Of a stretch of DNA of 64,000 nt, positions 17,335 to 54,964 are shown in pieces (position 1 is the stretch's first letter; each line of letters begins with the position of its first letter). The translations under genes and the position numbers were made by a program. Below the pieces are notes generated by a model. That model made no database searches and was not told the origin of the DNA. It saw nothing but the letters and a program-made list of their open reading frames with translations. Source of the DNA: Saccostrea cucullata (taxonomy: Eukaryota); contig NW_026928409.1 of NCBI RefSeq assembly GCF_032062105.1, forward strand, positions 124,001 to 188,000, given 5' to 3'.

Positions 17335-17366
<32 letters not shown>

Positions 17367-18816
17367 TTATAATTAAAAGTCTGAATGGTATAACCGTTGA
17401 ATTTGTGTGTTGTCTAGGGCTATCTTCGAAGATTGCCCAACTGTGACATTTTTAACGTGAAAACTTACCTTGTAACTTACGTTTTGTTTTTGATTAGTCC
17501 TGTCACTCTACATGGAAATGCCACGTAAGTTGCTACACAGAAACGTCAAGTACATGAAAATACCAGGTAGGTAGATACAAGGACATGATACATAACTAGC
17601 TACATATAATAGAGAATAGCACTACAGCAGCTTCATTGAATGATACCCAGAAATTCAAGATTTAGAATAAGATGCTTGGCGTTCTAGGTAACATCAGACT
17701 TCTTAGATCCGCGCCGTATATACGGCGCATACGGAGTGCATACGGAGCGGATCTAAGTAGTCTGATTTTAATTTAATTGGGGTGCTTAGAAAGAGTAAGC
17801 ATCCCCTTGCGACCAGACACAACCGATCTGACTTTTTGTGTTGATGAGACGGAATATTCCATGGTCAAATTCAATATAAAAATAAAGCAAGATTAGTTAA
17901 TGATAACAGATTTACTATATCTACAATAAAAATAGAAAATTTTTATGCTTGTAAAAAAAATCTACTTTTAATTATCGAAATCAACATTTTGTAACTGAAC
18001 ACATTACTATACTGAATCCTTCTGTTAAATTAATAAATGCTTTATTTTAAAAAATCCGATGAATTTCAATACATTTATTTTTTTCAAGCGGGGTTTTCTG
18101 GGAGGAAAAAGATATTGATAATTTAATATTAAATTCAATGATTTTAAGAAACCACTGGTGTTGCAATACTGCTACGACTAAGAAAATAGTAAAGAGCCAC
18201 TCACAGCTGATATACACGAAGCAGATCAGAGACCGTGTTTCACATCACCACTGTGGATTTTTGGGAACGAGTCGCTGTGCACGACACCACTACTACTACA
18301 TGTATCTGATTTTTTTTATAATTAAGATATCCATTGTATTTCTATGTAGGGAATTCGGTAATAGTTCATACAGTAAAAATACAAAATCCAGAAATTATTT
18401 TTTTATATATATATTCTTAGGTTGACTTTGTAATTGTGCTTAGATTTTGCATAGAATATTCGAATAAGCGTTTCATCCGTTCATTTTAACATCCTTTCCA
18501 TTGAAATTAGATCAGTACCAGCTTATAAAAGGACATACTCAACTCAAACCATCCACACCTCATGTCCAAGTCAAAATCTGGTTTGCTGTAAGGACTACAT
18601 TCTTATAGCTGATAATTGTGTTCGTAAGTACAATGCTTTAGTCTAATTGTTAATAAGTTTTGAACAACTACATGTTTTTAAAAGGTGATCAAGTAATTAC
18701 TTTCATGTGTTCTATCTTAGTTTTGCATGATATTGTTTTCAGCACTGAACGAAATTCCCAATATAAAGGATGACTTGATCAAGCTTCATAACGCCAACAT
18801 TCCTGTTGGGAAATGA
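17059..18816 (+). CDS. Secreted EMI-like cysteine-rich prepro-protein, copy A (200 aa, 5 exons)
   Basis: Exons 17059-17294, 17498-17524, 18149-18301, 18511-18623, 18743-18816; all GT-AG; 603 nt in frame. Signal peptide MRFLCRIICFTLVISVVA; domain NHWCC-x29-C-x7-C-x25-C-x6-CC-x9-C; ends IKDDLIKLHNANIPVGK*. Confidence 0.88.
17337..17366 (+). repeat. (AG)n microsatellite in intron 1 of copy A
   Basis: Uninterrupted agagag run. Confidence 0.9.
17693..17766. mobile_element. Short palindromic MITE-like insertion
   Basis: atcagacttcttagatccgc...gcggatctaagtagtctgat inverted arms; interrupts a Penelope-like 3' fragment in intron 2 of copy A. Confidence 0.55.
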
Positions 18817-20083
18817 TTCACTGGGCAAATTTCTAAACAAAAAATAAATTATCATTCTATTTCAAATTTGTTGTTAGTCTCAATATTAAAGAATCAGATA
18901 TTCTAACTCAATAAGCAGGTATGTTTTTTTTTCTGCTTCAATTATATCATACAGAAGCCTCGGGAATAAACACTCATAATTTAAAGTATTGCTTTCCTGC
19001 AATGCTAGTATTTTATTAAATTGATTACAAAATGTTCTAAACATCAACAAACAAAACAAACAAATTGATATTTCAAGTCCTTAAGGTAGTGTTTCTCAGA
19101 ATGAAACTCTTCCATATATAAATATTGCGAAGAAGATTGTAAAAGCAGGATTTTGATGTGCTTACATGTACTATAATAAAGTTATGATATTTTTTCCCTC
19201 AGAATCTGCTCAGAATCTCTCTCTATGTATACATTTATGTCTGCTTGCCTATTCAACCACAATCAAATAAGAACATAAATACTTTTAAAAGAATAAAAAT
19301 GGTCATTTATCGAAATACATGTATGCAACATATGACAGGGAATCAAAAACACAATATAAAACATATACTAAAGTAAGTAAAGTTATATACCCGGTACATC
19401 AACATTAAAAGTTAATTTAAGAGACAAATAAAATCAAGTTTATACCTGAGAGCAACAACGAGTTATATCAAATGACTAGATGCATATACAGTGTATATAT
19501 CAACACGGGAAATGGGAATGTCAGGAAATTTCTTACTTTGTAAGTTTATAGTAAAAGTGAAGATACGAATGATGATCCATCTAAAAAATTATAAGAATTA
19601 AAAAAAATGAAATGGGCTTAAAATACGGACCCATAGAAATTCCAAAGGTGTGATCATTTGTCCATTTGCAAGTTGCAATAATTTTTGGACTATTTCTAAC
19701 CCTGCACCATGAAAGCAATTAAAACAGAAATTTGAACAAAAGTATTTCATGATAAAAGCATTTGTTAGGCTTAATCTAAAATTTTCACAACATTATCTAT
19801 TTCACAGATTTTATAAAATTACAATTTTTCATAAAACATGTATAGTTATATTTGGAAACTTTGTCATTTACAATCTTCTAAAAATCTTCTGTTAAAATGT
19901 TTCCTATATAAAATCTTCTGTTAAAATGTTTCCTATATATATATAAAGTTCAGAAGGAAAATAGTTACCTTTTATAGTTCATGCATAGCAAAGCTATACC
20001 CCAGGGTATAGTTTTTGCTATCCACCCTCGGAAAATTTTGATGCAATTTTTGCCTCCAATATTTTGATTTCCAGCGATAAAGA

Positions 20084-20234
20084 AATAAACAACGTTTTTC
20101 AGTGAACATGGCGTTATGAATAGCAATTGCTCTGCTGGCATATTCCATGATGCGCGCTAGCGCATCATGGAAAATATGCCAGCAGAGCTATTGCTATTCA
20201 TAATGCCATGTTCCTTGAATAATCGTTGTTTATT
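20084..20234. repeat. ~150-bp near-perfect palindrome (Crypton/MITE-like)
   Basis: aataaacaacg...catgatgcgcgctagcgcatcatg...cgttgtttatt; arms pair with few mismatches. Confidence 0.7.
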
Positions 20235-22119
20235 ACTTATATTTGCATTTTTTGATTTTTTTTTCAAGAATATCAGAGGAAATCCTGACTTACATAGGGA
20301 CGCTGAAGGCTTCTTGTCTTCAGTAAAGAAAAACATACAGCTTTAAAATCAGTACACCTGATCAATGCTCTTTTTCTCTAATAAATCACGAACAATTTTT
20401 AAAGTATTTCCCTCTCAAACACAGTTATCTGGATACAAGCAGCGCCGTCATCACATTCTCTTAAGGTAAGTCATTCGTCAGCTTTTTAGAAAAGTTCACG
20501 CAGAAGCTTTTACTTCAAAACTACTTATTAAAATTCAATATTTATATCATATTTAAATTCAACAATGTAAATTTTTTAACATTCAATGAAGAAACTGCTA
20601 AAAAATCTACAAAGAAGCAAGATTTATGAGGGACTATTTCTTTTGGTGGAAGGATATTTAGCAGAAAATTCTGCAAATCTGCACATTTATAAAATTTAAT
20701 GTAATGGAAATTTAGCCTCACATACTTTTACTCGGAGCATATTTTCCGTTTTGATATTGCTAAAAAATATTTAATATAAGTCTTAATTAATATTTTTAGA
20801 CTAAGTTTTACACCTTCCCTCAACAAACTTTTCCAAAAAATGAAAATATATTAAAGAAGTCAAGATCAAATTTACACCATTTTTTACCTGAAAATCATAT
20901 TTTGACAAATATTTCAAAATTAACATCACTAACCCCACCTTTTTCTTTCATTATTTTAAACTACTCGATACTTGTGACTGATCAGCACTTAAGTCGTAAA
21001 AAGTTTGATATAAGAAAAAATTTTATTGCCTATAAAGTTTTAATACCCCAAATATGTTATTTTTTTAGTGCAAAAAGGTCACACAATAATTTACGCGCAT
21101 TAATTTGCAAGATTTGTTTAATGATAAATATTATTCAAACTATTTTACGTAAAATAAGATTATATTAATTGCCATGCTTACATCTGATCAAATATAAAAA
21201 GGGTTAAAGTAATTAACCAAAGAGATGAAATTTAAGTGCAAAAAGGTCAACTTAAATGTACTGTAGATCAGTAGGATGCGCACTGACCTCCTATTTTCTT
21301 TGCGATTTTGAGTTACACTTTATGAGTACTTATCCAAAATATACTTCTCAAAAAATCCTTGATTTAACAAATTTCAGGAGTGACTTACCTTAATTTTTGT
21401 TTTGATGCAGTTGTGACGTCATCCTTCAACGTTATTGAAACCCTCTGACAAAATCAATAATTTAACGCTATGATGAAAAATGAGAATGCTTCCATAATGA
21501 ATATTACCCCAGAATGTTTTTCTATGATTTTTTTTTTAGTTTTTCTATTTATTTTCAATAGCTGAAATCATTCTTGAAATAGATATACTAGTTAAAGAAA
21601 TTTTCTCTTTCTGAATGTTATTACTCAAGTGTGAAGAGTTATCGTTCTTTGTACAAATATGCATGATACGAAAAAATAAAAATATGACAGTTCTCTATAA
21701 TTTTTGAAAATTTTATTATACAATTAAATACATCAACCAAAATTAAATTTTTAAAGATATAAATCAGCAATTTTAAATATTGTGAATTTCTTTTTTTTCT
21801 TCAAAGAATATTATTAAAACTTATATTTATTCCTCTGACGAAACATTTCATATATATACTTCTCAACACGTACTGTGCGTATATTGGAGCCTATCTACAC
21901 GAGTGTGTGAAGCTGTTGCGTCTATAAACCTATGAAAACAGTTGGTGCGTACATGTTTATAGTGGGAGAGAGCAGTGGATATGCAAATACTTACTGATGG
22001 TGTCATAATGACTTCAGTAGCATTGTGACGTCATCAGGATTTCAGATTATTCTTGCAGTATTATTTTACTCAAAAAAAATTCAAACCTCAGAAATTATAT
22101 TATACATCAGTATAATAAA

Positions 22120-22900
22120 ACGCTTATTCGCTGGTTGTGAGTGGGATTAATAGAATTATTCATTACTACGAGTGTGGGATAGTGAAATTTCACCAAGGGG
22201 ACAAGATTCACAGTCTAGGATGAGGCTGTGCCGAGTCCTAGACCGTGAATCTTGGCCTCGAGGTGGAATTTTACTATTCCCACACGAGTAAGTAATGAAT
22301 GATTATTTTTCTCGCATTATTTTATCCAAAATAACGGCCTGTCAATGACGTCGCCATAGGGCTAAAAAATATTTTTTAAATTTTCAATCTAATTAAAAAT
22401 CGAAATACACCATCGGAGAGCGCGTACCTGAAAATGGTTTAAACATAGTGTAAACTAATAAAATGAATTTCAGTTCATGTAAATCAATTAGACAGATTAA
22501 AACTTTGAATAAAGAAAATTATTTATCCGATTCATTCTAGAAGAACTCTTCCGCGATCTAAATATAGTGCCATTTAAAAAGTGAAAATACGACAATATTT
22601 TGAATGAAAATAAGTTTATTTTAATAAGTTACATGACAACATTTTAATTAAATGTGACATTTTTTAACATTATTACAATTTCTTTATATTAAGACGGAAT
22701 GTTTACGTTATCGTTCACGGCGTAGTAATACACAGTGTAAGACAGAAAAATCTCACACTGCTGTCTCACACCGTACAAGTCAATCTATGCGAGAAAGCTC
22801 TTTTATCAAACCCTTGACAGGGACTATTCCCCTTGGGCAAGCCTTCGGGGAATAGTTCCCTGTAAGCGCTATCCCACTCACAACCAGTGGACAAGTGTAA
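22120..22900. mobile_element. Non-autonomous element with inverted ends and internal hairpins (Crypton-like, tentative)
   Basis: ctggttgtgagtgggat (~22131) versus atcccactcacaaccag (~22871); internal hairpins at ~22200-22270 and ~22815-22865. Confidence 0.5.
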
Positions 22901-25861
22901 GTGTATAATATTATATTATAAGTATAAGTGTATGATATTAGGACAACTGTAATATTACATTTTTTCGTAATGTACTGGACTGTCCAGGAGGAGAAAGCAT
23001 CCCCTGTTGACGGGTCACACCCCTCGTGAGCCCTATGTATATAAGTAAGTAAGACAAGTAAGTAAGACAGTGTACCTTACACTTCATGTAGCATTGCATA
23101 ATGTGTTGTGTTTAATTATGTAAATTTTATTTTAATCACACTCCCTTAAGTGTGCAAAGTTAATGTATTTATCTTGTACAGACGCAATAAATCAAAGACA
23201 ATTTTTTTTTATGTTTTTTTTTAAATTCATTTGGCGCTTTTGTGCACGGCTGAATGATATAACATCATATTATTTGGGTCTCCAAAGCAACGGGTAGACC
23301 CAGCAACAACAACAACATTTCTAAAATCTACACTTAGCCATTGTTTTCTAAAATTTGATTAACACCAACCTTGCAACTAGCGTGTACCCGGTGTCGCATA
23401 ATATTTGGTCCGCCTCGTTTAAAGGTCCGGCCGGACCAAATACGATAACATATTAGGTCCGCCTGGCTCTATAAGAAAAGGTCCGCCCTCGGCCTATTAT
23501 ATGAATTGTATGCCTGTGTTCATTCGATATTAATTGAAAAACTACTCATTTAAAATTAATTGAGGATATAAAGTCGTATTAATAGCTAGTGTTTCCTCCA
23601 AGAGAATGTAGTAAACAATAAGTAAGAAATTAATACATAAATAATATATTTATTAAAGAAATGTATAGATTTATTGATCGAGTTTCCTGTCGGGAAGATG
23701 GGACATGCTTATTTTGTCGTTTAAATACACTGGTATCAACATTATCATTTTAAAAAATATTAAGAATACAAATGTACATACATTTACCTTCACCGCCTGT
23801 TTACTGGCAGATTAATCAGTATGCAATGAACAGATGAGTGTTCGTAAGTCCAACACAAATCATTTAGTTACACTCTCTTTCCAATAAGTACATGATAAAT
23901 ATCCGACTTCCACTCGCAAAAATAAATTCACATCATTCAAAATATATTTCTTTATAGTTTTGATAAAAAAAATCTGTCATTCTTTACGTTTAATATTGTT
24001 GTCAATAAGTGGGGGGTCACTGTGACAGGGGCTTATGTCACGTTGTACTACCCTACACCCGTTATTGTAAAAACAACATGCCTGCGGATTGGGCAGTTAG
24101 GGGTTAGTCTATAATTGTCTCGTTTGAGCATTTCATTTCCGGAATTTTTGGTAATTATCAACTTTTCATTTCCGACATTTTTAAGTTTTCATTTCCGACA
24201 ATTTTTTGTTTTCATTTCCGACATTTTTTCAAATACATAAGTAGTACTTATAGTAACAAATCTGATAACTTTACTTATGAAAAATTTAAAGGAATAAATC
24301 ATAAATAAATCATTGAAATCCAATTTGTAAGTCTATCAGTGACTTATAAGTATGGTGCTGTCATTGACATTTGATTTAGTGAACAATAAATATGGTGAAA
24401 AAGTTTTATGCTCATTAAACTCTTTTACCTAGACTTAGTGCTACATGTATGCATATATGTATAAATAGTTCTTTTTTAATTTTATTAATATTTTGGCATT
24501 AATACTTCTAAAATTCTATTTTCTTTTACTTAGAAAACATTGAATTGCCGCACAGGTAAATTCCGGAAATGAAAAAAAAATTATGTCGGAAATGAAAACA
24601 AAAAATGTCGGAAATGAAATTAAAAAATGTCGGAAATGCTATGCAAATTTCTTTAAATGAAATGCAGCGAACCCAAAGTACCATATCCCCTGTGTTTTTA
24701 TTAACACCGTTTCTTACCTATTCAAAGGCTAATAATTATATCTACTATATCTCTGCATTTCATTTCCTGAATTTAACATTGCATTTTCCGACAATTTTTG
24801 TTATCATTTCGGAATCCGACATTTTTATTTTCATTTCCGACATTATTATTTTTTCCCCACATTTTTGGATTTTTTAAAAGATACCTTTATGGCACTTTAA
24901 AGTAAACATATATAACAAAGATGGAAAGAGATTTTTAACAGGGTATTGTATATATGTATTATATAATATTATTTATGACGGAAGTATGATTTTTTTTTCA
25001 TTGCCGAAAAAATACTGACATGAATTTGACAAATGTCGGAGATGAAAACTTTTAAAATGTAAAAACTGTCGGAAATGAAAAGTTTTTTTTTTTTTTATAT
25101 TTTTTTTTAAATTCCGGAAATGAAATGCGGCCCACTAGATATTACTTCAGGACAAGGTAAATGTGCATTACTTGGCGAAATCAAACTAAAGTCGATAGAT
25201 TGCTGGATTTATAAATGCCTTTATTATTCATATTTAATTTACATGTCGCTCATACAAAATCTCTGTGCATTAACTATTTATACTTATGTCTCTCGGTTTC
25301 AATAAAAATCCAAACATTTTATACGCCCCTTCTAAATGTTTTTGTTTTTTTTTTGGCGGGGGGGGGGGGGGGGCGTAGTAAAATCACGCGGATACGTGTC
25401 AAAAAATTAAAAACATTAAAGAATACCGGTATTGTACATATATGTCCCACATTTTTCCCCCAGAAAAAAGAGCTTGAGTTTAAAGATACCACCAATTTCA
25501 GAAGCCTGGCATACTAGAATTTCCCGTTAGCATCTAACAAACAATCCCGACTTGATTTTTCACCAGAGAAATACTGCTTCAGTACGGATTTTTTTCTCTC
25601 CCTTTCCACTGCTTTACGAGCTATAGGGAGAATTTTTTCAATCAATACATATTAAAGAGAAACTTAAAAAGCATACATTTTTTTTTAATAAATTAAATAG
25701 AAATAGTCTTTTAATATCATGACGTATCAAAAACTTCCTTGTAGCTCCTTGGTTAACGTTAGATTTTTCTATGACTGATTTCTTTTTATCATCGGCCACT
25801 GCTTATATATTCAAATTAAACTGTAAAAAGAAATGAAATTCATAACCAATAGCATTACATG

Positions 25862-26090
25862 GAGTGCATGGTTAGAGCGTCGAAGTAAGGAGTTGATCCT
25901 TACGTCGCAGGTTCGAATCCCTTTTTGGGACGTGGAAATCGGTCCTTCGGATGAAAACGTATAAACCGGGGTCCCGTGTCGCAGTAGGTGCTGGCACGAA
26001 AAAGATCCCTCCCTACTCAATGGCCGTAAGCGCCGAGTAAAGGACAAAATCTGTAGCTCACTGGCGGCAAGTGGTGGCGTCTCTACATTG
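25862..26090 (+). mobile_element. tRNA-derived SINE
   Basis: A-box-like tggttagagc and B-box ggttcgaatcc, followed by a body (aaaccggggtcccgtgtcgcagtaggt...aagatccctcc) also found at ~51850-52070 and ~36860-37010. Confidence 0.75.
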
Positions 26091-27249: not shown

Positions 27250-28735
27250 GATATACAAAGGACGGACCTTTTCTGATAACTGTGTTTTAAGGTCCGCCCT
27301 GTCCCTTTCTCGTGTTTTGAAGCTACGAAAATAAAAGCTGTCCAAAAATTTCCTTTATGACATGAAAATATCTGAAATACAGAGGACGGACCTTTTCTGA
27401 TAAATGCGTGTTAAGGTCCGCCCTGTCCCTTTCTCGTGTTTTTAAGGTACGAAAATAAACCCTGTCCAAAAATTTCCCTTCAAAACATACAGATATCTGA
27501 AATACAGAGGGCGGACCTTTTCTGGTAACTGCGTTTTAAGGTCCGCCCTGTCCCTTTCTCGTGTTTTTAAGCTACGAAAATAAACCCTGTCCAAAAATTT
27601 CCCTTTAACACATAAAGATGTCTGAAATACAGAGGGCGGACCTTTTCTGATAACTGTGTTTTAAGGTCCGCCCTGTCCCTTTTTCGTGTTTTTAAGCTAC
27701 GAAAATAAACCCTGTCCAAAAATTTCCCTTAAAAACATACAGATATCTGAAATACAGAGGGCGGACCTTTTCTGATAACTGCGTTTTAAGGTCCGCCCTG
27801 TCTATTTTTTTTTAGTTTTCAAGCTACTAAAATAAACCCTGTCCAAAAATTTCCCTTTATGACATGAAAATATCTGAAATACAGAGGGCGGACCTTTTCT
27901 GATAACTGCGTTTTAGGGTCCACCCTGTCCCTTCCTCGTGTTTTTAAGCTACTAAAATAAACCCTTTCCAAAAATTTCTCTTTAAAACGTAAAGATATCT
28001 GAAATACAGAGGGCAGACCTTTTATGATAACTGCTTTTTAAGGTCCGCCCTGTCCTTTTCTCGTGTTTTTAAGCTACGAAAATAAACCCTGTCCAAAAAT
28101 TTCCATTATGACATGAAAATATTTGAAATACAGAGGGCGGACCTTTTCTGATAACTGCGTTTTAATGTCCGTCCTGTCCCTTTCTCGTGTTTTTAATGTA
28201 CGAAAATAAACCCTGTCCAAAAATTTCCCTTTAACACATAAAGATATCTGAAATACAGAGGGCGGACCTTTTCTGATAACTGCGTTTTAAGGTCCGCCCT
28301 ATTTCTTTCTCTAGTTTTTTAAGCTACGAAAATAAACCTGTCCAAATCTTTTTTGTATGTCATGAAAATAACTGAAATACAGAGAGCGGACCTTTTCTGA
28401 TAACTGTGTTTTAAGGTCCGCCCTGTCTTTTTGTCGTGTTTTTAAGCTACGAAAATAAACTTTGTCCAACATTTTTCCTTTATGACATGAAGATATCTGA
28501 AATACAGAGGGCGGACCTTTTCTGATAACTGCGTTTTAAGGTCCGCCCTGTCTCTTTATCTAGTTTTTTAAGGTACGAAAATAAACCCTGTCCAAAAATT
28601 TCCCTTCATAACATACAGATCTCTGAAATACAGAGGACGGATCTTATATATTATGCTGCGCTTTAAGGTCCGTCATGTCACTTTCTCTGATTCTTATGCT
28701 ATACGAAAATAAACCCCGTATACAATTTCCTTTGC
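27250..28735 (+). repeat. Tandem array of about 12 units of ~125 bp inside the TIR element
   Basis: The (c/t)tgaaatac anchor recurs at 27372, 27497, 27622, 27747, 27874, 27999, 28123, 28248, 28372, 28497, 28623. Units carry GGGCGGACCTT...AAGGTCCGCCC or a close variant. Confidence 0.95.
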
Positions 28736-31909: not shown

Positions 31910-32325
31910 GTGTGTGTGTGAAACACCGATGCCCCCGTATAGAAGCTTGTAGAGAGGTTTGAATTTTCTCAAATGCATACCACTTTAAGGTCATAAGGTC
32001 AAAATTGTTTGTTCTCAAAGGAAGGTCTTTTCACAAGTAAAGCAACTGAAAACTATGAAAGCCCTTGCTCTATCTGTTCAAAAGTTATAACCAAAGATAC
32101 ATAGTGTGGTAACTTTTGTAAAAGTGGGTTAAACTCCAAGGTCAATGTCAAGAGATCAAATTAAGTGGTACCCAAAGAAAGGTCTTGTCACTAGGAATAC
32201 CCCTGTGAAATATAGAATAGCCTCACCCACTCAAAAGTTACGAGCAAGGTTAATTTTTCTGCAGACGGACAGAGAGGACAAAAACTATATACCCCGAATC
32301 TTCGATTACGGGGGCATAAAAATTC
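31910..32325 (-). mobile_element. HINE/Helentron-like non-autonomous element
   Basis: Ends tgtgaaacaccgatgccccc and ccccgaatcttcgattacgggggcataaaaa; aaggtca core motifs. Confidence 0.6.
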
Positions 32326-37959: not shown

Positions 37960-39356
37960 TCATCCAACGACAATTCCGCCATTATGTAGATTGATGAGGT
38001 CGTCCTTAATGTTAGATATTTCACTTAGAGCTGTAAAGTAAAAATAAAAGAACATATTATGAAGTATTGAAATAGTGAAAATAACTAATGACTATTGTTG
38101 TTAAAGTATTTTGTCTTTAATATAATAAATATTTCTTTAAAAAAAATAATTGAATTCATTTAATTTAATCCAAACATTCTCGGAGGCAGTCATATCGCTG
38201 CTAATTTTTTGAATGGTTTTAATTTGCATCTTATGATGTCTTAGATTTTATGAATTGCTATATAGTATGCAGAAATTTTTTTAGNNNNNNNNNNNNNNNN
38301 NNNNNNNNNNNNNNNNNNNNNNNNNNNNNNNNNNNNNNNNNNNNNNNNNNNNNNNNNNNNNNNNNNNNNNNNNNNNNNNNNNNNNNNNNNNNNNNNNNNN
38401 NNNNNNNNNNNNNNNNNNNNNNNNNNNNCAAATTTCATATTTTTTGTTGTGTTTTTTTTTGCCCTATCCATCCTTTCATCAAGTTCATTCGCCTTTGTAT
38501 CGTCACTATATGTAGAAAGGTAATTAGTTTATAAAAGTCAAAAAGAATACAAGCAAGCTTCAATATACTTACGGACACAACTACCGGCTACTAGAACGTA
38601 TCCTTTACAGCAAACTAGGTTTTTGTTGGGACAGCTGGTGTGAATGACCTTTACTGAGTATGTTGTTTTGTATTGCGGTACCGAGCTGCAACATAATATA
38701 CACTGTTACTATATTAAGACATTATGCATAGATATAGGTCTTACTTGAAATCTTATTTAAAAATACATAGTATAGAGTCAATAATATAGTAGAAAAAGTA
38801 TAATGTTTTGCATTATTATAACTAATTATATACATATAGTAGTAGTGATGCCTGGCACATCGTGACAATCCCAGAAAGCCACAGTGATGATGAGACACGC
38901 GATCCCTGATTTGTTTAGTGTACAGAAGCTGTGAATGTGTCTGTGTGATTTTCTTTGTCGTGGCAACGTTACAACACCAATGAGCCCTGGTAATCATGAT
39001 AGAAATGGTTAGTAAAATGAAAGTTTAATCCGGTTTTGGAGTTTTTTCACCTTTTGAAGCTTTATAGGGCATTTATAGAACACCATTTAGAAAAAAAAAT
39101 ATGACTTTCTATGTGTATATACGAAAATAAGGGAATTGAAGGTTAGACTTAAGATGGAGATAAAAGAAGTTAAACGTCTTGATACACACGTCGCATTTCC
39201 ATGAAGAGTGACTGCTCGCACAACACGTTGAGCGTTTTCTGGAAGGTCCAGGATATGCATTTTGCCAAGAGCCTCTTTTTCTTTTTCACTTAGGAACTCT
39301 AGCGGATCACAAATTATGAAAGTAATGCACAAATAAAAACATAACAATCGTAGCAT
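37960..39356 (-). CDS. Secreted EMI-like cysteine-rich prepro-protein, copy B (167 aa, 4 exons)
   Basis: Exons 39356-39190, 38986-38834, 38685-38573, 38030-37960. Signal peptide, pro-piece ending RVVR, AVTLHGNATAHWCC...CGFLGLSRC...CPNKNLVCCKGYVLVAGSC, end IKDDLINLHNGGIVVG*. The last intron contains the N gap. Confidence 0.88.
38285..38428. other. Assembly gap
   Basis: Run of 144 N. Confidence 1.
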
Positions 39357-40530: not shown

Positions 40531-41737
40531 ATGCTGAAATACATCGCTTTTACATTGATCGGAGTAATAATAATACAAGGGGCACATATTAATAGGAATA
40601 GACGCACTGGAACAGCGTAAGTCATGAAAACTTTCAATTTAACTATGAAAGAATATATTTCGTCTCCAGAGAGAGTACCAACATGCTGCAGTATACTGGC
40701 AACTTAGCCACATATGATCCACATATGAGTATCATGTGATTCTCATATGACTTGCCACATATGATTTTCATATGATTGTATATACATATGATTCTCATAT
40801 GATCCACATATGATCCTCATATGAAAGGTAATGCATATGTGGATCATATGTGGCTAAATTGCCTATGTATAACAAAGTTTTTAAAAATAATGAAAGTCGT
40901 GGTGGTAATTCGGATCTTAACTTTCAGTTATCTGTGCTTTCATTTCATTGTTTAGGGAACATTGGTGTTGTGGTGTGGATGTTGCACCAGTACGGAAAAA
41001 CGTGACGACAGTTGATGTAGTACCAACACAGGTAACAAAAATAGTGAATACTACATACCAGAGAGACTGCCACTTTGGAGAGACACCCACTATCGCGGAG
41101 GGACTTCTGTGTGAGGACATCGTCAGCCATGTTGTGTATGGTTTGTTAAAATATTGTGTATTTCCATAGGATGGGAGAGGCGAGTGAGGGATGCTAAGAA
41201 AACATTGAATCATTTTTCAAAGCATACATGTACTGAAAAACAAACTTTTATTCATAAATTATATTAATGATTTAAACATGTAATTATTTTGTTTAAAATG
41301 CGTTTTATAGAGAAAATTGATGAATATTTTGAACATTTTTAGAACGACGACGGAGTTAAAGGAAGTCAATAAAACAACGATTGTTGAGTACCCTGGGAAA
41401 TGTCCTCAGCACTATCTCCACTGCTGTGACGGATATGAAAAAGTAGGATCCCAGTGCTTAGGTAGGATTTCATCGCAAAGGATTTTAGCCGGAAATAAAC
41501 TTATTTAAAATATTTAAAATAATCAATTATCAAACCTTTTGATTATGATTTGTGTTGTAAATGTGCTCTTTGATTCTTTTTTACGTGTGTTCTTTCTTAT
41601 TGACATGTTAATAAATATTATATATTTTTGACATGTTACTTATATCAGTACTAGTTCTTACTTATATCATTTTTTTCACAGATCAGGGAGCATCAAGTTC
41701 CCTACAAGAACTCATAGATGCTGGCCTACTTGGATAA
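40531..41737 (+). CDS. Secreted EMI-like cysteine-rich protein, copy C (146 aa, 4 exons)
   Basis: Exons 40531-40616, 40956-41135, 41343-41461, 41682-41737. MLKYIAFTLIGVIIIQG-AHINRNRR-TGTAEHWCC...C-x13-C...CPQHYLHCCDGYEKVGSQC...SLQELIDAGLLG*. Confidence 0.88.
40698..40863. mobile_element. MITE built of CATATG modules, in intron 1 of copy C
   Basis: ggcaacttagccacatatgatccacatatg ... catatgtggatcatatgtggctaaattgcc inverted ends. Confidence 0.65.
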
Positions 41738-43865: not shown

Positions 43866-44633
43866 TCAACCAAGAAGGGATAGTGCAACTTCATGAAGAT
43901 CTCTCAAATCTGAAAAAAGTAGGAAAAGAACATTATTTAAGTACGTTACATGCATGTGTTGTCCAAACGATTTCTGTATTGCTTTATCCATGATTTTGGT
44001 TCATTTCATAAAAATTATTAACTTACAAACACATTTGTAAGCCACCATAATGTACATGTTGCAGCATACGATGTGTTCCTTTGGGCATCGGCCTTCAACA
44101 ACTGTTTTATAGTATTCAGTTACATATGTTGTTACTGGTCTACAACAGAAATAAAGCAGATATGTTTCATCAATTTAAAAGAAATACATAGTTTTGCTTT
44201 TCCAAAATCTTGCATTTTACGAAAAGTATCATACATACTTGTCATTTACAAGATGATGCCTTGCAACGGAACGTGATTTAGTAACCAGTGGTAGAGGTGT
44301 ATTTCTGCAGCAAAGATGTTCCCTTAAAAAAAATTACAGGCGACTGTTTTAAAACCACCAGGTATATATTAAAAAAACAACTTTGAATCCCCCCAAACAG
44401 CACAAGACGAGTACATACCCTGTAAGTGTTGCCCGTACAAGTCTTTGTAATGATGGTGGAAGATCTCGTTCATCAGCCCTAGCCAGGGCCTTTAGTTCGT
44501 CTTCACTTAAAGTTTCCTCAGCTCTTACTTTTCTGATTATTGGTTTCAATGAAAAATCATCACAAAATCCGACAAGAATTAAATTTAGAAATAAAACCAA
44601 AAGAAATATTCTCTTCATGCTGGTAGTCGCCAT
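43866..44633 (-). CDS. Secreted EMI-like prepro-protein, copy D, 6-Cys short form (151 aa from first ATG, 4 exons)
   Basis: Exons 44633-44419, 44322-44239, 44139-44027, 43909-43866. Pro-piece ...DLPPSLQRLVR; EHLCC-x40-CPKEHIVCCNMYIMVAYKC; ends LHEVALSLLG*. Confidence 0.85.
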
Positions 44634-45600: not shown

Positions 45601-45714
45601 GGAAATTTATTCAACCTGTTTGCTCTGCTTCTAGTTTGTTTTGTTTCAATAGACTTTTGATCTTGAGTACTACTGTGAAATCATTAAATTTTGTGGAGGA
45701 GGGGGGGGGGGTAA

Positions 45715-46150
45715 TTATGCGCCTGGATCGATAGATCCGGGGCGTATATTGTTTTTGTCCTGTCTGTCTATCTGTTTGTTTGTTTGTTTGTTTGTTTGTC
45801 TGCAAACTTTAACCTTCGCCATAACTTTTGAACCATGAAATATAGAGACTTCATATTTGGTATATATACTCCACTAATTTTGCTCTTTCAAATGACGCCA
45901 AGGTCAATGACCTTGTGACCTTGACTGTGACCTGTATACTAAAAATAGCATTTTAGTACCTTCGCCATAGCTTGTGAACCATAAGAGATAGAGACTTCAT
46001 ATTTGGTGTGCATACTCCACTAACCAGGTTCTTTCAAACTACCGAACTACAATGACCTTGTGGCCTTGACTGTTTCCTATATGCTAAAAAACAGCTTTTT
46101 TGCGAATTTTGTTGCCGCCGGGTGCATAGTGTTTCACAAACACATCTGGT
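45715..46150 (+). mobile_element. HINE/Helentron-like element
   Basis: 5' hairpin ctggatcgatagatccgg, (TGTT/TGTC)n microsatellite, gaccttgtgaccttga core repeats, 3' end catagtgtttcacaaacacatctggtt. Confidence 0.7.
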
Positions 46151-47814
46151 TTTTTTTTTTTTTTTGATTTCGAGGTATGGAGAGACCATCAGGTCCATAA
46201 CCACCTCGAAATGTAAAACTTCGTATGCATAACTACTCAACACTTCTCCAACCTCCAAATCAAATCCCACAAACCAACATTTCTTTCTCAACCTTGAAAC
46301 TTATCTCCATATTTCATTCATAACAATTTAAAGTTCAGTTTGAAAATTTATCATCGGTAAATTGTATTGTTTAGGTTTTATGACTTAGGCAGTCATACAT
46401 GTATAAGTTAAAGAAAATTATTTATTTAAGACTTTTTCTACCGGATGCATGTGCTCCAAAAATGCTAGTCATGAAAAACTGAAAATGTTAAAATTAGGAG
46501 CCATTGTTGTTCATGGAATGAAATCGGTGCTCTACTTAGCAAAATATATTCCTAACATGAAAGGATTCGTAGTTTTAAATATTAAAAAATACAAAAAATT
46601 ACTTATAGCAAATAAATAGTTAAAAAGGACGTTGTAAGAAGCTACATGTAGTTAGTGATTATTTATAATTTATATATTTGTACTTCTATTAAAGACAATG
46701 TTATAAACAAAATAAAACGTACCCGGTTTACAAATCTCATTTCGTAGCATAATCGGCTCTCGGCCATTTTCAGCCCTCTTGTTAATGTTGGATATTGATA
46801 CATGGTCAATGTGGGAAAGACTATACATTTTTTTTATCAATCTAACCCAATATTCACCAATATAAGTTTAATAACCCTAAAGTATCGGTTTTCAATGTGA
46901 TTTTGATGTAAACAAACAAAAAGCTACTCCTCTTACATGTTGCACACCATGGTTATTCAGTGTATATAAATGAACAGAAAATTTTGTGAAAAACTTTCAA
47001 AATCCTACCTGTCCTTCAATTTTTGGTCTGATTTCAATATTATAACTTGGCACACAAGTAGACTACACTCAGATACATGATTCTGTGTATCGGTTTTTGA
47101 TTTCGATGAACGGTATTGCCGTGGTTACTAAAAATAGAAATTTTTGTGAAATACTTTCAAATGCTACCAAAAATCTAGAGAATTTTAGAGTTTAATATCT
47201 GGACGGTTTATTGACCGCTGAGTTTGTATTACATGTACGAATATGCCCGAAACATTCCGAATACGAGCGTTCAATATCGAACGCCTCGATGTAAACAAAA
47301 AAAATGTCGTCTGGTCGAATTCTCAGAACTAAATTAAAGAAAGGAAGTGGATCTAGGTAAGATGTGTTTATTTTTCACACAAAAATGAAATTATTTATTA
47401 AAATATAGTGCGTACTAGACCAATTAAAACCTAAATAAGCAAATCATATCGCTCGGTAGGGCCATCGGAATAATTTGAAAACCGATACTAAAAAAACATT
47501 AATTTTAGTTTTTTTTTAGATGGAATAATTATTATGAATTAAGTGGAAATGTTTTAGCTATATAATGCTTTGCTGGCACTGTCTGTTCAAATGCACTCGC
47601 AAGCTCGTGCGTTTGAACGGCCAACTTGTGCCAATATTCACCAATATAAGTTTAATAACCCTAAAGTATCGGTTTTCGATTTTGATGAACGATGTTGCCA
47701 TGGTTACTAAAAATAGAAAATTTTGTGAAATACTTTCAAACTGCTACTCCAAATACAATTTTAGTCGGATTATGATATAATGTGGCATGCAAATAGATTA
47801 CACTGAGATACATA

Positions 47815-48468
47815 ATTATGCCCCCCTTCGAAGAAGGGAGGGTATATTGCTTTGCTGCTGTCTGTTGGTAGGTCTGTCGGTCCACCAAGTTTCCGTTCAT
47901 TTTCTTCGCAACGGTTACACATACTGAAATAAAATTTGGTATACAGATTTATCTTGAGAATATCTAGGTCAACTTCGGTTTTAGGTACGATCGAGCCATT
48001 TTTGACAGAGTTATGCCCCTTGGATTTAGAAAAAAAGCCAAATATTTACAATTTCCATTTATTTTCTTTGCAGCATATTTTATACATTTTTTTATATATT
48101 TTTATACATGTTTTAGTTTGCACATACTAAAATGAAATTTGGTATATAGATTTATCATGAGAATATCTAGGTCAAGTCTGGTTTTGGGTACGATCGAGCC
48201 ATTGTTGACAGAGATATGGCCCTTGGACTTAGAAAAAGCCAATTATTTGCAGTTTCCGTTCATTTTCTTGGCAGAGGTTGCACAAACTGAAATAAAAAAT
48301 TTGGTATACAGATTTATCAGATGGATATCTAGGTAAAGGTTTTGTTTTGGGTATGATCCCATCATTTTTGACATTTTTGACAGAGTTATGCGGACTTATG
48401 TCGTTTTGGACGTAGAAAAATTCCAATTTGGGGGAAGGGGCATAAGTATTTTACAAACATCTCTTGTT
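47815..48468 (+). mobile_element. HINE/Helentron-like element with three internal tandem units
   Basis: ttatgccccccttcgaagaaggg start; units at ~47925, ~48125 and ~48285; end ggggcataagtattttacaaacatctcttgttt. Confidence 0.7.
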
Positions 48469-48799
48469 TTCATTTTGTTTAAGTTTTGGTTTTTTATGTT
48501 GATGAATGGTGTTGGCAAGGTAACTAAAATTAAAAATTCTGTAAAATTTGATTAAAAGCTTATCTTACAGTTGTAGTCTTATGGCAATCTTGCCACAAAT
48601 AGAAAATAAATCAATTACCATAACTCTATTTATTGCTGTTGTAAAGTTTCAAGTCACATCTCCTACTTTTCTCTTCCTTTGTAATAAGTACAAACCAGTA
48701 GACCTATAGTCTCGATAGAGATTTCTGGGTTTTTCACACATTACATGTATCAAGCCATGAATTAATCATGGTAGAGGGTAAAAAAAACAAACAGATATA

Positions 48800-49866
48800 C
48801 GAGGGGCTATCAAAAAGTTCGTGGACTAGCGCAATAATTAAAACCGCTTTAGGTACATCAATGAATTTTAAAATATTTAGCTATTATCTTTTCTATCTAT
48901 AGAATAAACCACAAATCATCAATTTTATTTTTAAATAAATAAGTAAAGTTTTCATAAGCAATGGTATGTCCAGGCGCAACCTCGAAAACGACGTTTTTTC
49001 GACCTAAATGTAACTAAGATAAACTATTTTGATATGAACATTTGACATCCAAAAATCCCGTAAATTCAGGTAAGTGTTAGGACACTATGGTTCTATAAAA
49101 TATGAAATTTTTACCTCATTCTGGAAGTTCTGTGAAATTTTATTTTAAATTTTACATGGAGTATCCAAACAAATATTGCCTTGAAAATGACGTCAAAAGG
49201 AGGAGGGTTTCCTTTTCCAACATTCTATAAAGTTTTGCCACTGAAAAAAACTGGTACATGTATACACCTAGGAAATGTTTAAACTGACTAATTAGAAATA
49301 ATTTGCATTCAGATTACTTGTTTTTTAATGCCAAAATAGATTCAGAAAGAAAAGGGATGCAAAGTTAATGTCGATTTGTAGTCAAGGTTTGAAAAATCTA
49401 TCATGTCAAATAATGACGTTCATCATGTGTTTTAGCTATATTGAACTCCAAATAAACAAATATGCTGGCACAATCAAGCGAGGATCTCTCCCAATCTATA
49501 AATCCATTTGCAATAATATATGCAATGAAAGCTGCTGTTCATGACATTGTAAGGTCATAAAAACAAGATGGGTTGAAGTCCTTACTCAGCTCTAGGGAAT
49601 CTCATCAAAATAAGTGTTCGAGGTAGAAGAAGCGGACATTGAAAAATAATGACGTTGTCGGACGTCATGAAAGTAAGCGGCGACGGCGCCGGATGATCAT
49701 ATAATGTTTTTTTTATAATAATTTGGGAAATAACGAACGTATCAAGCTCAAATTGTCAACATTTCTTTGCTTTTTGTTGTTTTATGTTCCTTATAAATTT
49801 TGTAAGCTCAGACAACAAAATACTAATTTTATAGCCTCAGTCTACGAACTTTTTGATAAACTCTCG
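48800..49866. mobile_element. Non-autonomous mariner-type transposon
   Basis: TA-CGAGGGGCTATCAAAAAGTTCGTGGACT ... AGTCTACGAACTTTTTGATAAACTCTCG-TA: TIRs with TA duplication. Confidence 0.8.
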
Positions 49867-51849
49867 TAAATGTATTAAGAGCACAACATTTTATGTCCAT
49901 GTTTACTCAATGAACTTATCAGTATCAAATGATTAGAACTAAGAATTAGGTATCAATCGAAGTACAGTCAGTAACGATACTGGAAAGGGTTGGAAAGGTT
50001 GGCGTACTGTTATGTATCCTTACACCGACTCTTCAGAATTTCAATAACAATAGATAAGAATGTGTGCGTATGTAATGCTGGTCAGGGCCAAAGTTGCAAA
50101 AACACGTGATAGTTCTCACGGAGTAAATTTAAGGACATGGCCGATTTCCGGGTCACATGTTGAACCCTTTGTTTACTAGCATTGAATGTATGAAGATTAG
50201 GGAGAAAATCTTGTTCATTATTGTAGCATATTAAATCAAGAGCAAAAATGTTTTAAACATAGACCCCATAATAAGTATATTTTTTGAGTTCTTAATAAAC
50301 AATCAGAGACAACAATAATTTTGATACAATCAGATTTCTTTGTGTAAGGTTTTAGTGTGCATACATGTATGCCAGGGGATAATAAGCGTGTTCTCCCCAG
50401 AACCCTTTTTACAAAACATACTAAATAAAACGTCAAATTCATCAAATAATAAAAAGTATTTTCATGTTAATCTCACATTGAACAATGCGTTATGCTAATC
50501 ATTGTAAAATACCTGAAAGTATAATTTAAAATAAAATTATTCAAAAGTCCTTTATCAAGTATAAAACTATTTAATTTATTGCAAAAAAGTGTTTTGGTAG
50601 CCAAATTAACCTCTAAACTGTGTATTTCTTTCCTAAAACCTCTTATCACTAGAACACTCCTCCTTTATTGTATAAAAATCCTATTTGCCGTTTGTTTCTT
50701 CCTTTAATTATCTGTTTGAAATTCTCGAAAATATTACTTATAATGTAAAATAATTGTAACAGACTGCTAATATTATTATGAGAAATAAACCAATCTTGTA
50801 AAGGGAGACGATTCAATTTTCCAGAGAGGAAAACTAACATCTCAAATAAAAATAGAAGAATGGGTAAAAAAAAATCACAGATTTAACGGATATAGGGATA
50901 ATTCAGACCAAATCCTCCTTCAAGTAAAATGTATACATTTTAAATGTGGCTAAAATTGTGAATAAAGAATAAAGATACTGTTTTTTAGCTTTTCATCAAA
51001 TCAACACCAGCTTTTAGCTCTACTCTAGTTTAAAACCATACCACTCTTCTTGTTGGAGAAAGGGTATAATGCTGTATCTGAAAAGTGAAAACTCTAAAAT
51101 TATTATAGGTATACAAGATAACGATATTCTGAAGACGTATTTCATTTAATGGTTATGATAAAAACAAAATATTTTGAGGCTTCGTCAAACTTACTTGATG
51201 TTATGAGGATGATAATTCATTTAATAGTTTGCAATAAAAGTAGTATAGTTTTTTATAATTATTTCAATGAAATATATGGAGATAACGAATATGGTATTAA
51301 AGCTCAAAGTTCATTAAACATGATAAATTTTGGAGCACGTCTAAAATATCAGATATCGAATCAAGTGTTTTGTCGTCCGGCCACACCCGCTGTGTGTTCT
51401 TTGTATATGTTCCTTGTCATGATCCAGAAATAAAGGAGATTTCTATCGAAAATTCAGTGTGTAAAAAATGACCTAACGATTAGTATGAAAAATGGCAGTC
51501 AGCTTTTGACTTAATGATAAATTGTATTTGCCAATAAGATATCGACGAAATGATGACTTTAAACAAGACTGTTGATATTCCTGTTCCATCAACTTGTTTG
51601 TCAATGGCTAACCTCGTTTTAGAAATTGTTAATACGTAGAGCATGCATCTAGAGTAACCAATGCTAGTTAAAATCTTATATCATCAGAAATCTGTTAACT
51701 AATCATGACCTCAGAAGATTATTAGATTATTCCTTAAAACATTCCTTTGAAGAGATTTTATGAATTGTGGCTCCAGCCTCCCAGCAAGGTCACTATAGAT
51801 TGGAATTGAATATAATGAAATATAAACATAGAATACCGGTAACTAAAGG

Positions 51850-52070
51850 TCGCATGGCGCAATGGTTAAAGGGTTTTCTCTAGAGTCGCGGAGCAAGGAT
51901 TTGAATTTTACACCACACGTATGAATCACAATCTGAGATATCTAGGACGTAGGGACACGCCCTTCGTGTGAGACCGTATAAACCGAGGTCCCTTGTCGCA
52001 GAAGGTTCTGGAACGAAGAAGATCCATAACTTTCCAGAAACGACTATGCTTTGTGGCACGTTTGGGGAAA
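51850..52070 (+). mobile_element. tRNA-derived SINE (degenerate)
   Basis: tggcgcaatggttaaa A-box; body gtataaaccgaggtcccttgtcgcagaaggt shared with the copy at 25862. Confidence 0.6.
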
Positions 52071-52418
52071 AAAATCAAAAATGAGAAGAATTTTTTTAGA
52101 CTACACACGACAGACAGCCGACGAACAAATTTCAATCAATAAAGCTCTCTTGAGCTTTTGGCTGAGGTGAACAGAAAGGAAAAAACAATTAATTTTGAAG
52201 AATCCTATAGCTTATTTGCTAGATGACGTCATGTTCAAGGTGTTTTTCATAGTTGTGATAAAAGCATTGAAATTTGGGGCTCTTATACATTTTATGATAG
52301 AAGACGTTCTGTTGCGGAAGTTTTTCATTTAATACTAGTAGTGATAATAAAAAGTAACCAAATTTGAAGATATTTCTTCAACAAAAAAGTATTTCAATGT
52401 TTATTGCACAAATTATGT

Positions 52419-54964
52419 TTAACCAAGAAGTCCAGCTTGCATAAGATCTATCAAATCCTGCTTGTAGGCCGCTGCTTCACCGAGCACTGCAATGGAAAAA
52501 ATATCAGAATTACTAGGAAATATTCATCTGTAAAAGTCTCTTCTATTAAATAATGAATTTCAACAGAGAGAGTGTAATACATACGCATGCAGTTTCCAGT
52601 GATGTTTACGTAATGGTTACAACAAACAATGTTTGTATTGGGACACTGCTGAATCAGAGGCATCTCCTCGTAAGTCAGATGGGTGATCAGTTTCTCTCTG
52701 TAACATTTTTAAGATATGAAAGTTTTCTAGTTACCTATTTCAAATAAGTTAATAATTCTGTGCGATGAATTTAGAAATTTTTTTCTACTGTAGTTTAACA
52801 TATTGAGCAGTTTCCCTAGCAAAAAATCCTTTTTAACATATTCATATCTTAATTCTTTTTCAAGGTTCTATTGTCCATTCTTATTAACATTGATAAAATT
52901 GGTTGATATTCTAAAATTTGGATAACTTACTGATATCTCAATTCATTTTGATGGCATTTTCCACTGTTCAGAAATCCACATGAATTTTCTCCAACCTGAA
53001 CTTGAACTCCGACCTTTACTATTTCGCTGACGACCTTTGACACTGTCTTATAACCAATAGGAGAACTTGTATCGGTGGAGCAGCAAAAATGTCTATATAA
53101 TAAACATAAAAACATTAGTAAAGAATTCAAATGATACAGTGTTTACAATTAAATGTGTTGATAATCGCAAAGCAACAAATATAAAAATCTATAACTCCTC
53201 CTTTTCTCTAAATTCAAAAATTAAAAAAAGCTAAAAAAGAATTTAATCTATTTCTCTTTTTTTAATTACCAAAGAAATTGAGTACTGTATAAGAAACACT
53301 TTTGTATTATCATTTTCTCTTCATAATTTTATTTGATGACGATTTAAAATAAATGCATCACTTCATATCATTCACATAACGCTATAAAAATATACAACTA
53401 AAAGTTTATGTGAATGGGGTATCTGAAGAAAATAATATAACTCAAAAATTCGAATCAAGCCTTTTAATTCATTTTAAATAGAGAAACAGGTAAATTATTC
53501 ATTGAATTGGAGCCAGTCAAGGGATTTCCCAGTCAAAGCCCCCTAATAAAAACGTCCCGGTCAAAGCGTCCCCCGATTTTAGTCAAAGCGCCCCCTAATT
53601 TTGGTCAAAGCACCCCCTAACATATTTTTATAGAAAAAATACCGTCCCCAAATATTGGTCAAAGCGTCCCCTGATTTTAGTCAAAGCGCCCCCTAACATA
53701 CTTTTCTATAAAAAATTCATTACTGTCCCGAAGAAATGATCAAAATGCCTCCTGATTTTGATCAAAGCGTGTTCTGGTTTTGGTCAAACGCCCCCTAACA
53801 TATCTTGATAGGATTTTGGGAAGGGGTGGGGGTAATTACAGAGGGCTCAGGTAAAATCAAGATGTATAATTTGCGTATTTCTGGCTTTTATTTCGGAGTT
53901 CGAAAAATCTTGCATGGTGCCAGTAAAAAAATCAGGGGACATTTTGTCCATTGCTTGGGGATGGATTCGAAACGATTTTTTTCTACTGATAGAATTATAT
54001 TAGGGGGCGTTTTGACCAAAATCTGTGACGCTTTGACCAAAATCGGGGGCATTTTGACCAATTCTTGGCGACGGTTTCGAAACGATTTTTTTTCTAAGAA
54101 AAAATATGTTAGGGGCGCCTTGACCAAAATCAGGGGGCGCTTTGACTAAAATCAGGGACGCTTTGACTACAATCATGGGACGCTTTGACCAATATTCGGG
54201 GGAGGTTGTGTAACATCATTTTACTGTAAAATTCTATAAAGGGGCGCTTTGACCAAAACATAAAGCCGCCCCCCTAATGAAACCGTCCCGGTCAAAGCGT
54301 TCCCGATAATGGTCAAAGCGTCCCCTAATTTTGGTCAAAATGCCCCATGATTTTGGTCAAAGCGCCCCTTTATAGAATTTTACAGCAAAATGCCAAAGTG
54401 TAAAGCTGCCAAAGTTCTCCTACCATATTGTTGAAATGTTAACAATGTTTTCAAATTTTAAATCGCTTAACTATGACCTCTCAATGGATCACTTATGGTA
54501 TCGCAGCCTATCACATTGTGTTGAAAGTGTCAAAGGGGAAAAACAAAGAAATATAAACAGAAAAGTAAAAATTTTCTTGTCAAATATGGAATTTATTTTA
54601 CGTATAAAACAATATTTTCATAATTTCAATTATGCACACTCACAAAAAATATCAATAAAACATCTGTTCCACTCATGAAATAAATTTCATATCCATCTAC
54701 CAAATATTGAATACATTCAACTGAATACATTTATTTCTTATTTACAAAGATAAATCAGGAGTAAATCAGGAGTACTTACGAGTTATCCCCAGTTTTTGTT
54801 CTTCTTCTCAAAGCAACTTGTAACCGAAAAGGAAGATCGCTAAATTTGGCGTTGGCGAGAATTGCAAGTTCCTGAGGAGTAAAGGGATTCTTTATAAGAT
54901 GGGAGGAGAGCAGGTAGCACGATCCTAGGATTAGCAGAGACAGGGATATGATTCCTTGTGCCAT
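52419..54964 (-). CDS. Secreted EMI-like cysteine-rich prepro-protein, copy E (175 aa, 4 exons)
   Basis: Exons 54964-54780, 53092-52931, 52697-52585, 52486-52419. Pro-piece ...SDLPFRLQVALRRR; HFCC-x33-CGFLNSGKC-x25-CPNTNIVCCNHYVNITGNC; ends KQDLIDLMQAGLLG*. Confidence 0.88.
53530..54390. repeat. Foldback element of ~22-bp modules in intron 1 of copy E
   Basis: ggtcaaagcgccccct-type modules run forward at 53530-53800, reverse at 53930-54260, and forward again at 54270-54370. Confidence 0.75.

Follow-up and report, generated by a model that had tools for sequence, protein, structure and literature searches.

A family of Gly-ended proteins encoded in the S. cucullata genome

The stretch of DNA analyzed here (the window) comprises 64,000 nt of the oyster Saccostrea cucullata genome and carries paralogues of an unnamed gene family, labelled A to F in window order, whose products mostly end in Gly or in Gly followed by a basic residue. 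The original prediction had quoted such ends, Gly-stop or Gly-Lys-stop, for five of these genes, and all five were present in the window with the stop directly after: positions 18775 to 18810 on the plus strand for gene A (then Lys and the stop codon), 37998 to 37963 on the minus strand for B, 41702 to 41734 on the plus strand for C, 43898 to 43869 on the minus strand for D, and 52454 to 52422 on the minus strand for E.

For genes A to E, the joined exons formed open frames, and the products were identical to NCBI S. cucullata records that are all named uncharacterized. The spliced model of gene A (17059 to 18816, plus strand) has five coding exons (17059-17294, 17498-17524, 18149-18301, 18511-18623, and 18743-18816) and encodes 200 residues identical to XP_062615792.1 (P0001), with a V-G-K-stop end. 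Its Gly-Lys-stop codons (18808 to 18816, plus strand) would make the protein a substrate of carboxypeptidase E and then PAM. The 27-nt micro-exon of this gene (17498 to 17524, plus strand) encodes a T-L-H-G-N-A-T stretch that closes exon 1 in B and F. Gene B (37960 to 39356, minus strand; exons 39356-39190, 38986-38834, 38685-38573, and 38030-37960) encodes 167 residues ending in V-G-stop (Gly-stop at 37960 to 37965, minus strand), carries RVVR at residues 44 to 47 and is identical to XP_062615794.1 (P0005). A gap of 144 N (38285 to 38428) lies within its last intron and leaves the coding exons untouched. Genes B (39356, minus strand) and C (40531, plus strand) are in divergent orientation, 1.2 kb separates their start codons, and a shared promoter is possible.

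Gene C (40531 to 41737, plus strand; exons 40531-40616, 40956-41135, 41343-41461, and 41682-41737) encodes 146 residues identical to XP_062615813.1 (P0048), ending in L-G-stop (41732 to 41737, plus strand), with RNRR at residues 22 to 25 and no pro-helix. The 151-residue product of gene D (43866 to 44633, minus strand; exons 44633-44419, 44322-44239, 44139-44027, and 43909-43866), identical to XP_062615795.1 (P0033), also ends in L-G-stop (43866 to 43871, minus strand); it has six Cys, no hairpin tip loop and a tail of just 15 residues. Gene E (52419 to 54964, minus strand; exons 54964-54780, 53092-52931, 52697-52585, and 52486-52419) encodes 175 residues identical to XP_062615812.1 (P0043), with RRR at residues 53 to 55 and an L-G-stop end (52419 to 52424, minus strand). 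All 16 introns of the five genes were of the GT-AG type, and their phases were 2, 2, 1 in every gene, with the 27-nt exon as the one addition in gene A; the genes are therefore paralogues with homologous last exons.

A sixth paralogue, gene F (63137 to 63728, plus strand), was recognized from tblastn and hidden Markov model (HMM) matches, reading frames and exon lengths. Its exon 1 (63137-63307) is frameshifted, exon 2 lies at 63576-63728, and the remaining exons fall past the window end. Since its orthologues are intact in four other oysters, the frameshift is either a pseudogene allele or an assembly error; orthologues in other oysters end in L-G. An HMM search over all six frames of the window revealed no copies beyond A to F.

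The last Gly is written with three different codons (GGG, GGA, GGA, GGT, and GGT in A to E), and Gly(K/R)n ends, i.e., Gly alone or followed only by Lys or Arg, closed 116 of the 3664 stop-ended six-frame stretches of the window (3%), a background rate that the five gene ends exceed. The statement that the rest of the proteins had diverged heavily holds for nine of the ten pairs among A to E (24 to 37% identity) and fails for A and B, which are 62% identical, so that the window offers about four independent cases of the Gly end rather than five.

Two tandem arrays also lie in the window, one at 27253 to 28716 (125 bp unit, 11.7 copies) and one at 58989 to 59798 (~147 bp unit, 4.8 copies). Pieces related to the second array occur near 32000 and 45800. 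Both arrays are likely satellite or helitron-type repeats.

The terminal Gly is retained in oysters and beyond

Oyster records of the family were collected by two word-index searches and two cluster look-ups covering S. cucullata, S. echinata, Ostrea edulis, Crassostrea virginica, Magallana gigas, and M. angulata. Conservation of the terminal Gly in orthologues, which the original prediction had named as a check, was confirmed: among the 47 records with a C-terminal part, 42 ended in G, GK, or GR. The remaining five appear to be gene-model errors; three diverge within the tail and belong to genes that also have a normal record, and two run on as G-W, as if the stop had been read through. The terminus of gene A switches between genera: Saccostrea has G-K, Crassostrea and Magallana have G-R. 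The six paralogues recur across the oyster species sampled, with gene B orthologues 80 to 95% identical.

A profile of 15 oyster proteins then retrieved 102 representatives among 1.84 billion sequences, and 61 were kept that had both CC motifs and a tail of 12 to 45 residues. The 41 dropped comprised 18 without the last core, eight with a tail below 12 residues, seven with a tail above 45, and eight without the first half. This filter was blind to the last residue, yet it was set after the tails had been viewed. A Gly(K/R)n end was found in 42 of the 61 (G in 30, GK in seven, GR in three, GKKK and GRKRK in one each), compared to 5.7 ± 2.3 with a maximum of 14 in 5000 shuffles of the tails, although this figure and the binomial ones overstate independence because the sequences are kin. 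As a control for bias from a Gly-ending query, the proteins were re-scored with a tail-less profile, and Gly(K/R)n ends were then seen in 37 of 54 proteins, or in 31 of 48 without the kin of the oyster query. The relatives in this re-scoring had a median identity of 30% to the window proteins (55 aligned).

Ten family ids were looked up and seven of them had organism names, with an eighth named relative coming from a third word-index search. These eight non-oyster proteins belong to Bugula, Tubulanus (two), Owenia (three), Seison, and Rotaria, and seven of them end in G, GK, or GR. The family thus reaches molluscs, a bryozoan, a nemertean, an annelid, and rotifers, at least five spiralian phyla, and its range may exceed Spiralia. 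An Atlas feature search gave a mollusc cluster at 0.94 and a rotifer 'secreted protein' cluster at 0.91; none of the named clusters gave a usable match to the core in an Atlas search.

The protein end has the properties of an amidation signal

Carboxypeptidase E trims C-terminal basic residues, and a terminal G or GK is the substrate of carboxypeptidase E plus PAM in alpha-amidation. The original prediction had read the five ends as such a signal, and the wider family, with its G, GK, GR, GKKK, and GRKRK ends, bears this out; we infer the amide itself from sequence. The terminal Gly lies 15 to 41 residues past the last Cys and so tracks the stop codon, not a fixed position. In D-like members, the tail is shorter by about nine residues and Gly is still last. 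The residue before it was V, L, I, M, F, or Y in 33 of 42 proteins, and in the 20 proteins with one to four non-Gly residues after the last Gly, the first of these was Lys or Arg in 14 and all were in 12. Lys or Arg residues that come and go after Gly are expected, because carboxypeptidase E would remove them. On a tree made by a quick method from 90 columns, with the tail and three rows excluded and twelve further oyster rows included, the Gly-plus-basic state (14 of 70 rows) changed 10 times, with at least three changes forced by strong branches, a count to be read with strong support on just 5 of the 66 branches.

The terminal Gly is separate from a second, internal one. A G-φ-φ cap closes the helix that precedes the tail end (G in 38 of 50), and the terminal Gly lies 3 to 9 residues beyond it where both exist. 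In two Link-domain fusions of one lineage, the helix and a G-L-L cap are retained and the last Gly is replaced by Ala. In these proteins (P0074 and P0075), the family domain is joined to one or two Link (Xlink) domains and its tail, now internal, is without the last Gly. Two further proteins, P0083 (Owenia) and P0106, hold three tandem copies of the domain; the tail of the second copy closes with an internal G-K and the protein ends in I-V-G, so that a polyprotein is possible.

The proteins thus combine a Gly or Gly-plus-Lys/Arg end with a hydrophobic N-terminus (on the basis of hydropathy) and a C-terminus predicted to be accessible, as a PAM substrate would. We regard the pattern of Gly(K/R)n ends as the hallmark of carboxypeptidase E acting with PAM, and amidation as quite likely. 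Two other uses of the end were rejected. A short amidated peptide cut from the tail would require a dibasic site, and none is common to the tails; ubiquitin-like conjugation through Gly was dismissed because the secretory lumen is not known to have such machinery.

A predicted prepro-protein with a long beta-hairpin

The predicted order of parts is a signal peptide, a pro-helix, a basic cleavage site, an eight-Cys long beta-hairpin, a C-terminal helix, and the amide. Judged by hydropathy only, a signal peptide is indicated by an 11-residue mean of 2.4 to 3.2 in A to E and of at least 2.0 in 53 of 56 family members. It would be followed by a helical pro-region with a conserved L-P and by a basic site before an H-W-C-C start. 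In 40 of 56 proteins, such a site lay no more than 22 residues from the first CC; among the window proteins, B to E carry one ahead of the H-W-C-C start and A does not. Tail length was no different in proteins with and without the pro L-P motif (18 versus 39 proteins, p 0.67), a comparison made to check for a pro-helix clasping the tail helix.

An AlphaFold2 model of B, built from 55 sequences, had a predicted local distance difference test score of 91.6 and a predicted template modelling score of 0.62. In this model, strands 66-91 and 97-122 form a single long hairpin, followed by a small Cys-rich base, a helix (146-161), and a free tail. The last six residues were coil in both models made, and the C-terminus is therefore predicted to be accessible to enzymes. 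Of the eight Cys, six are invariant and the pair at the tip occurs in 53 of 55 proteins. The tip loop reads C-G-φ-φ in 42 of 55, flanked by basic residues, and is replaced in C-type and lost in D-type proteins; where this happens, the base, helix, and Gly persist. The tip is hydrophobic and closed by a disulfide (C-G-F-L-G type; residues 91-99 of B), and presumably recalls membrane-binding loops. The hairpin columns are rich in Lys and Arg, with core charges of +8 in A, +10 in B, and +5 in D, and acidic cores in C and E. Each 86-residue core of A and B contains eight His, making metal or pH sensing possible.

The amphipathic helix that the original prediction placed before the end is partly supported. 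A helix is predicted in B, and hydrophobic periodicity was significant across the family (p 0.009), but in none of the five single window tails (p 0.07 to 0.24), whose hydrophobic moments of 0.44 to 0.57 did not exceed those of shuffled tails. The net charge of the tails was 0 to -3, which speaks against the antimicrobial peptide (AMP)- or toxin-like tail suggested at the outset; a cationic amphipathic helical AMP was rejected on the same grounds.

Comparison with known protein families

The original prediction had spoken of a matrix EMI module, and this label did not hold. With a Pfam PF07546 score of at least 25 bits as the criterion, EMI was found in 0 of 69 family proteins (best 13.2 bits, E value 0.16) and in 0 of the 5 window proteins. 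Weak matches occurred in 3 of the 69, two of them covering nearly the entire profile, and an EMI+EGF cluster came third in the Atlas feature search at 0.79, which we treat as a lead only. The family shares with EMI proteins (MEGF10/CED-1/Draper, EMILIN, and multimerin) a secreted Cys-rich module closing in CC-x-G-(Y/F)...C. Against the consensus WRCCPG(Y/F)xGxxC given in the available text of PMC13751773, the CC, the G (37 of 55), and the Y/F (50 of 55) match, while W-R, P, and the spacing do not. The family has eight Cys, with a second CC at the start, versus six or seven in EMI; it has nine residues from CC to the last Cys versus seven, and neither W-R before nor Pro after CC. Its domain occurs by itself, preceded by a pro-region and followed by a C-terminal helix and a Gly end, whereas EMI heads EGF repeats or coiled coils. 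Since both the Pfam cut-off and the published consensus failed, the family is EMI-like at most.

Fold searches with the two models gave no Foldseek match at an E value of 0.001 and no VIA match at Z 5 among 48,161 chains, in comparisons that contained no EMI chain, and PDB sequence searches returned zero matches and then two septin rows at an E value of 0.42. A beta-pore-forming toxin was considered and dropped, because the weak fold rows (best E value 0.16; Z 3.9 with a root-mean-square deviation of 4.9 over 54 aligned residues) were hairpin-on-hairpin matches of generic long hairpins.

Similar in layout are the oyster big defensins Cg-BigDef1 and Cg-BigDef5, which, as far as the available texts describe them, share the signal peptide, propeptide, furin-type site, ~10 kDa disulfide domain, and terminal Gly as amide donor. 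They differ in that there is no likeness of sequence or Cys pattern, the family is predicted to form a long hairpin rather than a beta-defensin fold, and its amide would follow a neutral to acidic helix. Membership among big defensins, defined by a hydrophobic N-domain and a six-Cys beta-defensin domain, was rejected given the other Cys pattern, the lack of a Pfam match and the hairpin model.

The 908-residue glycoprotein precursor proGATI of Chlamydomonas offers a parallel in processing. According to the available text of PMC9351486, a folded, disulfide-bonded domain is freed at a furin-like site, its basic residues are trimmed, and a hydrophobic residue is amidated, with a role in signaling. 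The algal protein is unrelated in sequence and fold, and its amide has been proven by mass spectrometry (MS), while that of the present family is inferred. Cys-rich molluscan neuropeptide precursors (CCWamide, CLCCY, GSWN, FYFY, CCCGS, prohormone-3, and PTTH/trunk) are likewise secreted prepro-proteins with Cys-rich mature parts, some of them amidated, in the text of the oyster survey PMC8398477; they differ in loci and descriptions, and the motifs and LOC ids of the family do not occur in the text or text supplement of that survey, sequence figures aside. The secreted Nimrod B proteins of Drosophila are a small clustered family in the EMI/NIM orbit that bridges targets to phagocytes (PMC8419693, available text). 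They carry NIM/EGF repeats, and the analogy is functional only. NimB proteins are not known to be amidated.

Proposed processing and function

Starting from the gene structures, the eight-Cys domain, and the Gly(K/R)n end described above, we consider it probable that A to E represent a family of likely secreted proteins that are trimmed and amidated by carboxypeptidase E and PAM and act as conserved ligands. After removal of the predicted signal peptide, a furin-type convertase would cut the helical pro-region away at the basic site just ahead of H-W-C-C. The predicted product has a disulfide-tied base bearing a long hairpin of two strands whose hydrophobic tip reads C-G-x-x-G-x-x-R-C, followed by an amphipathic helix and a free six-residue tail. 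Removal of Lys or Arg and conversion of Gly would then, in all likelihood, leave a protein of ~9 to 13 kDa with a Val- or Leu-amide end. Given such a protein, the helix and amidated tail might be read by a receptor or partner protein, with the variable hairpin tip setting target or paralogue specificity, a step we put forward tentatively. A conserved-ligand function is favored on two counts: no other feature persists as well as the end, and oysters keep a stable set of paralogues. A bolder version would make the family an ancient, spiralian-wide set of protein hormones or cytokines, amidated and built on an EMI-derived hairpin scaffold, that neuropeptide surveys have missed; the hydrophobic-amide tail would be the receptor epitope, and the paralogues a fixed cluster kept in oysters. 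As a whole, this version appears unlikely.

The biochemistry has precedents in the available texts of several papers: oyster ganglia make amidated peptides verified by MS (PMC8398477), and in Chlamydomonas a folded 23 kDa domain is amidated by PAM once Arg has been trimmed (PMC9351486).

Several observations, besides the kinship of the sequences and the few strong tree branches, weigh against the proposal. Terminal Gly is invariant in the five window proteins, as first claimed, but not family-wide, since 19 of the 61 representatives have no amidation signal. Some of these are model errors (one is an intron read-through) and many are apparently genuine; in three, the G precedes K/R or F plus another residue, and several have a basic end without Gly. 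Amidation can therefore not be essential in every member. The pro-region of A, which is long and rich in His, has no RxxR or dibasic site ahead of the domain, and the RVVR of B sits inside a predicted helix. The triple-repeat and Link-fused members resemble modular binding proteins rather than hormones. Oyster extracts, known to hold amidated peptides, contain Gly-extended forms beside the amides (PMC4200219, available text), and the 2011 MS analysis of Cg-BigDef1 screened for Gly loss, which was not among the matched modifications reported in the available text (PMC3182236), while later work regards this defensin as amidated (PMC6805989 and PMC9786018, available texts). Family ids and motifs are also absent from the text supplement of the ganglion neuropeptide survey (PMC8398477).

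The alternative that survives best, though we think it rather unlikely, is an amidated host-defense protein or opsonin, in which microbes or dying cells are bound by a cationic, hydrophobic-tipped hairpin in the manner of a secreted Nimrod-like bridge, the amide mainly guarding the end as in big defensins. The prepro layout, furin site, and terminal Gly parallel the oyster big defensins as their available texts present them, the C-G-φ-φ tip adjoins basic residues in 42 of 55 proteins, and the cores of A, B, and D are cationic; furthermore, EMI domains are predicted phosphatidylserine binders (PMC13751773) and NimB4 bridges apoptotic cells (PMC8419693), both in the available texts. The tails, however, are neutral to acidic, the cores of C and E are acidic, and D has lost the tip loop. 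Oyster AMP families are fast-changing, unlike the stable paralogue set and its 80 to 95% orthologue identity.

Unlikely, too, are secreted structural, mucus, or adhesive proteins whose Tyr/His/Thr/Val-rich hairpins form sheets and whose amide, if made, merely blocks carboxypeptidases or removes a charge. The long unsupported hairpin of the model, the eight His in the cores of A and B, the existence of triple-repeat and Link-fused members, and the link between EMI and multimer formation (PMC13751773, available text) would fit such a role, but most members are a single small domain with a pro-region and processing sites. Because Gly is kept at changing distances and its K/R extensions toggle, selection appears to act on a processed end.

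It is more doubtful still that the Gly is unamidated, a helix cap or a small residue packed on the base that is last by coincidence. The conserved G-φ-φ cap (G in 38 of 50) and the 19 of 61 proteins without terminal Gly would agree with this, but the cap Gly is a second, internal residue, the terminal one follows 3 to 9 residues on and 15 to 41 past the last Cys, it is unfolded in the model, and the preference for K/R after it is left unexplained. Chance, or plain shared descent in a recent tandem expansion, for which one may cite the 62% identity of A and B and the common ancestry of all members, is already effectively refuted by phylum-wide conservation: seven of the eight named non-oyster proteins, which come from rotifers and from a bryozoan, a nemertean, and an annelid, still show the end, even as neighbors have diverged to ~30% identity and tail lengths vary.

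No description of the family was found in the open literature searched, including the text and one text supplement of the oyster neuropeptide survey PMC8398477 and the available text of PMC6337334; subscription papers, figures, and other gene-id systems may hold a name or expression data. We conclude that a real and strongly conserved amidation-type end is carried by an unnamed family, with the chemistry known and the carrier new. The processing route is textbook, while the carrier, although spread over five or more spiralian phyla, has neither a name nor a Pfam model at cut-off. If the amide is confirmed, deeply conserved, folded amidated proteins of 9 to 13 kDa would join the signaling or defense toolkit of molluscs, worms, and rotifers, conserved Gly(K/R)n ends could be used to find large PAM substrates overlooked by short-peptide surveys, and the family would offer candidate ligands for orphan receptors of farmed oysters.

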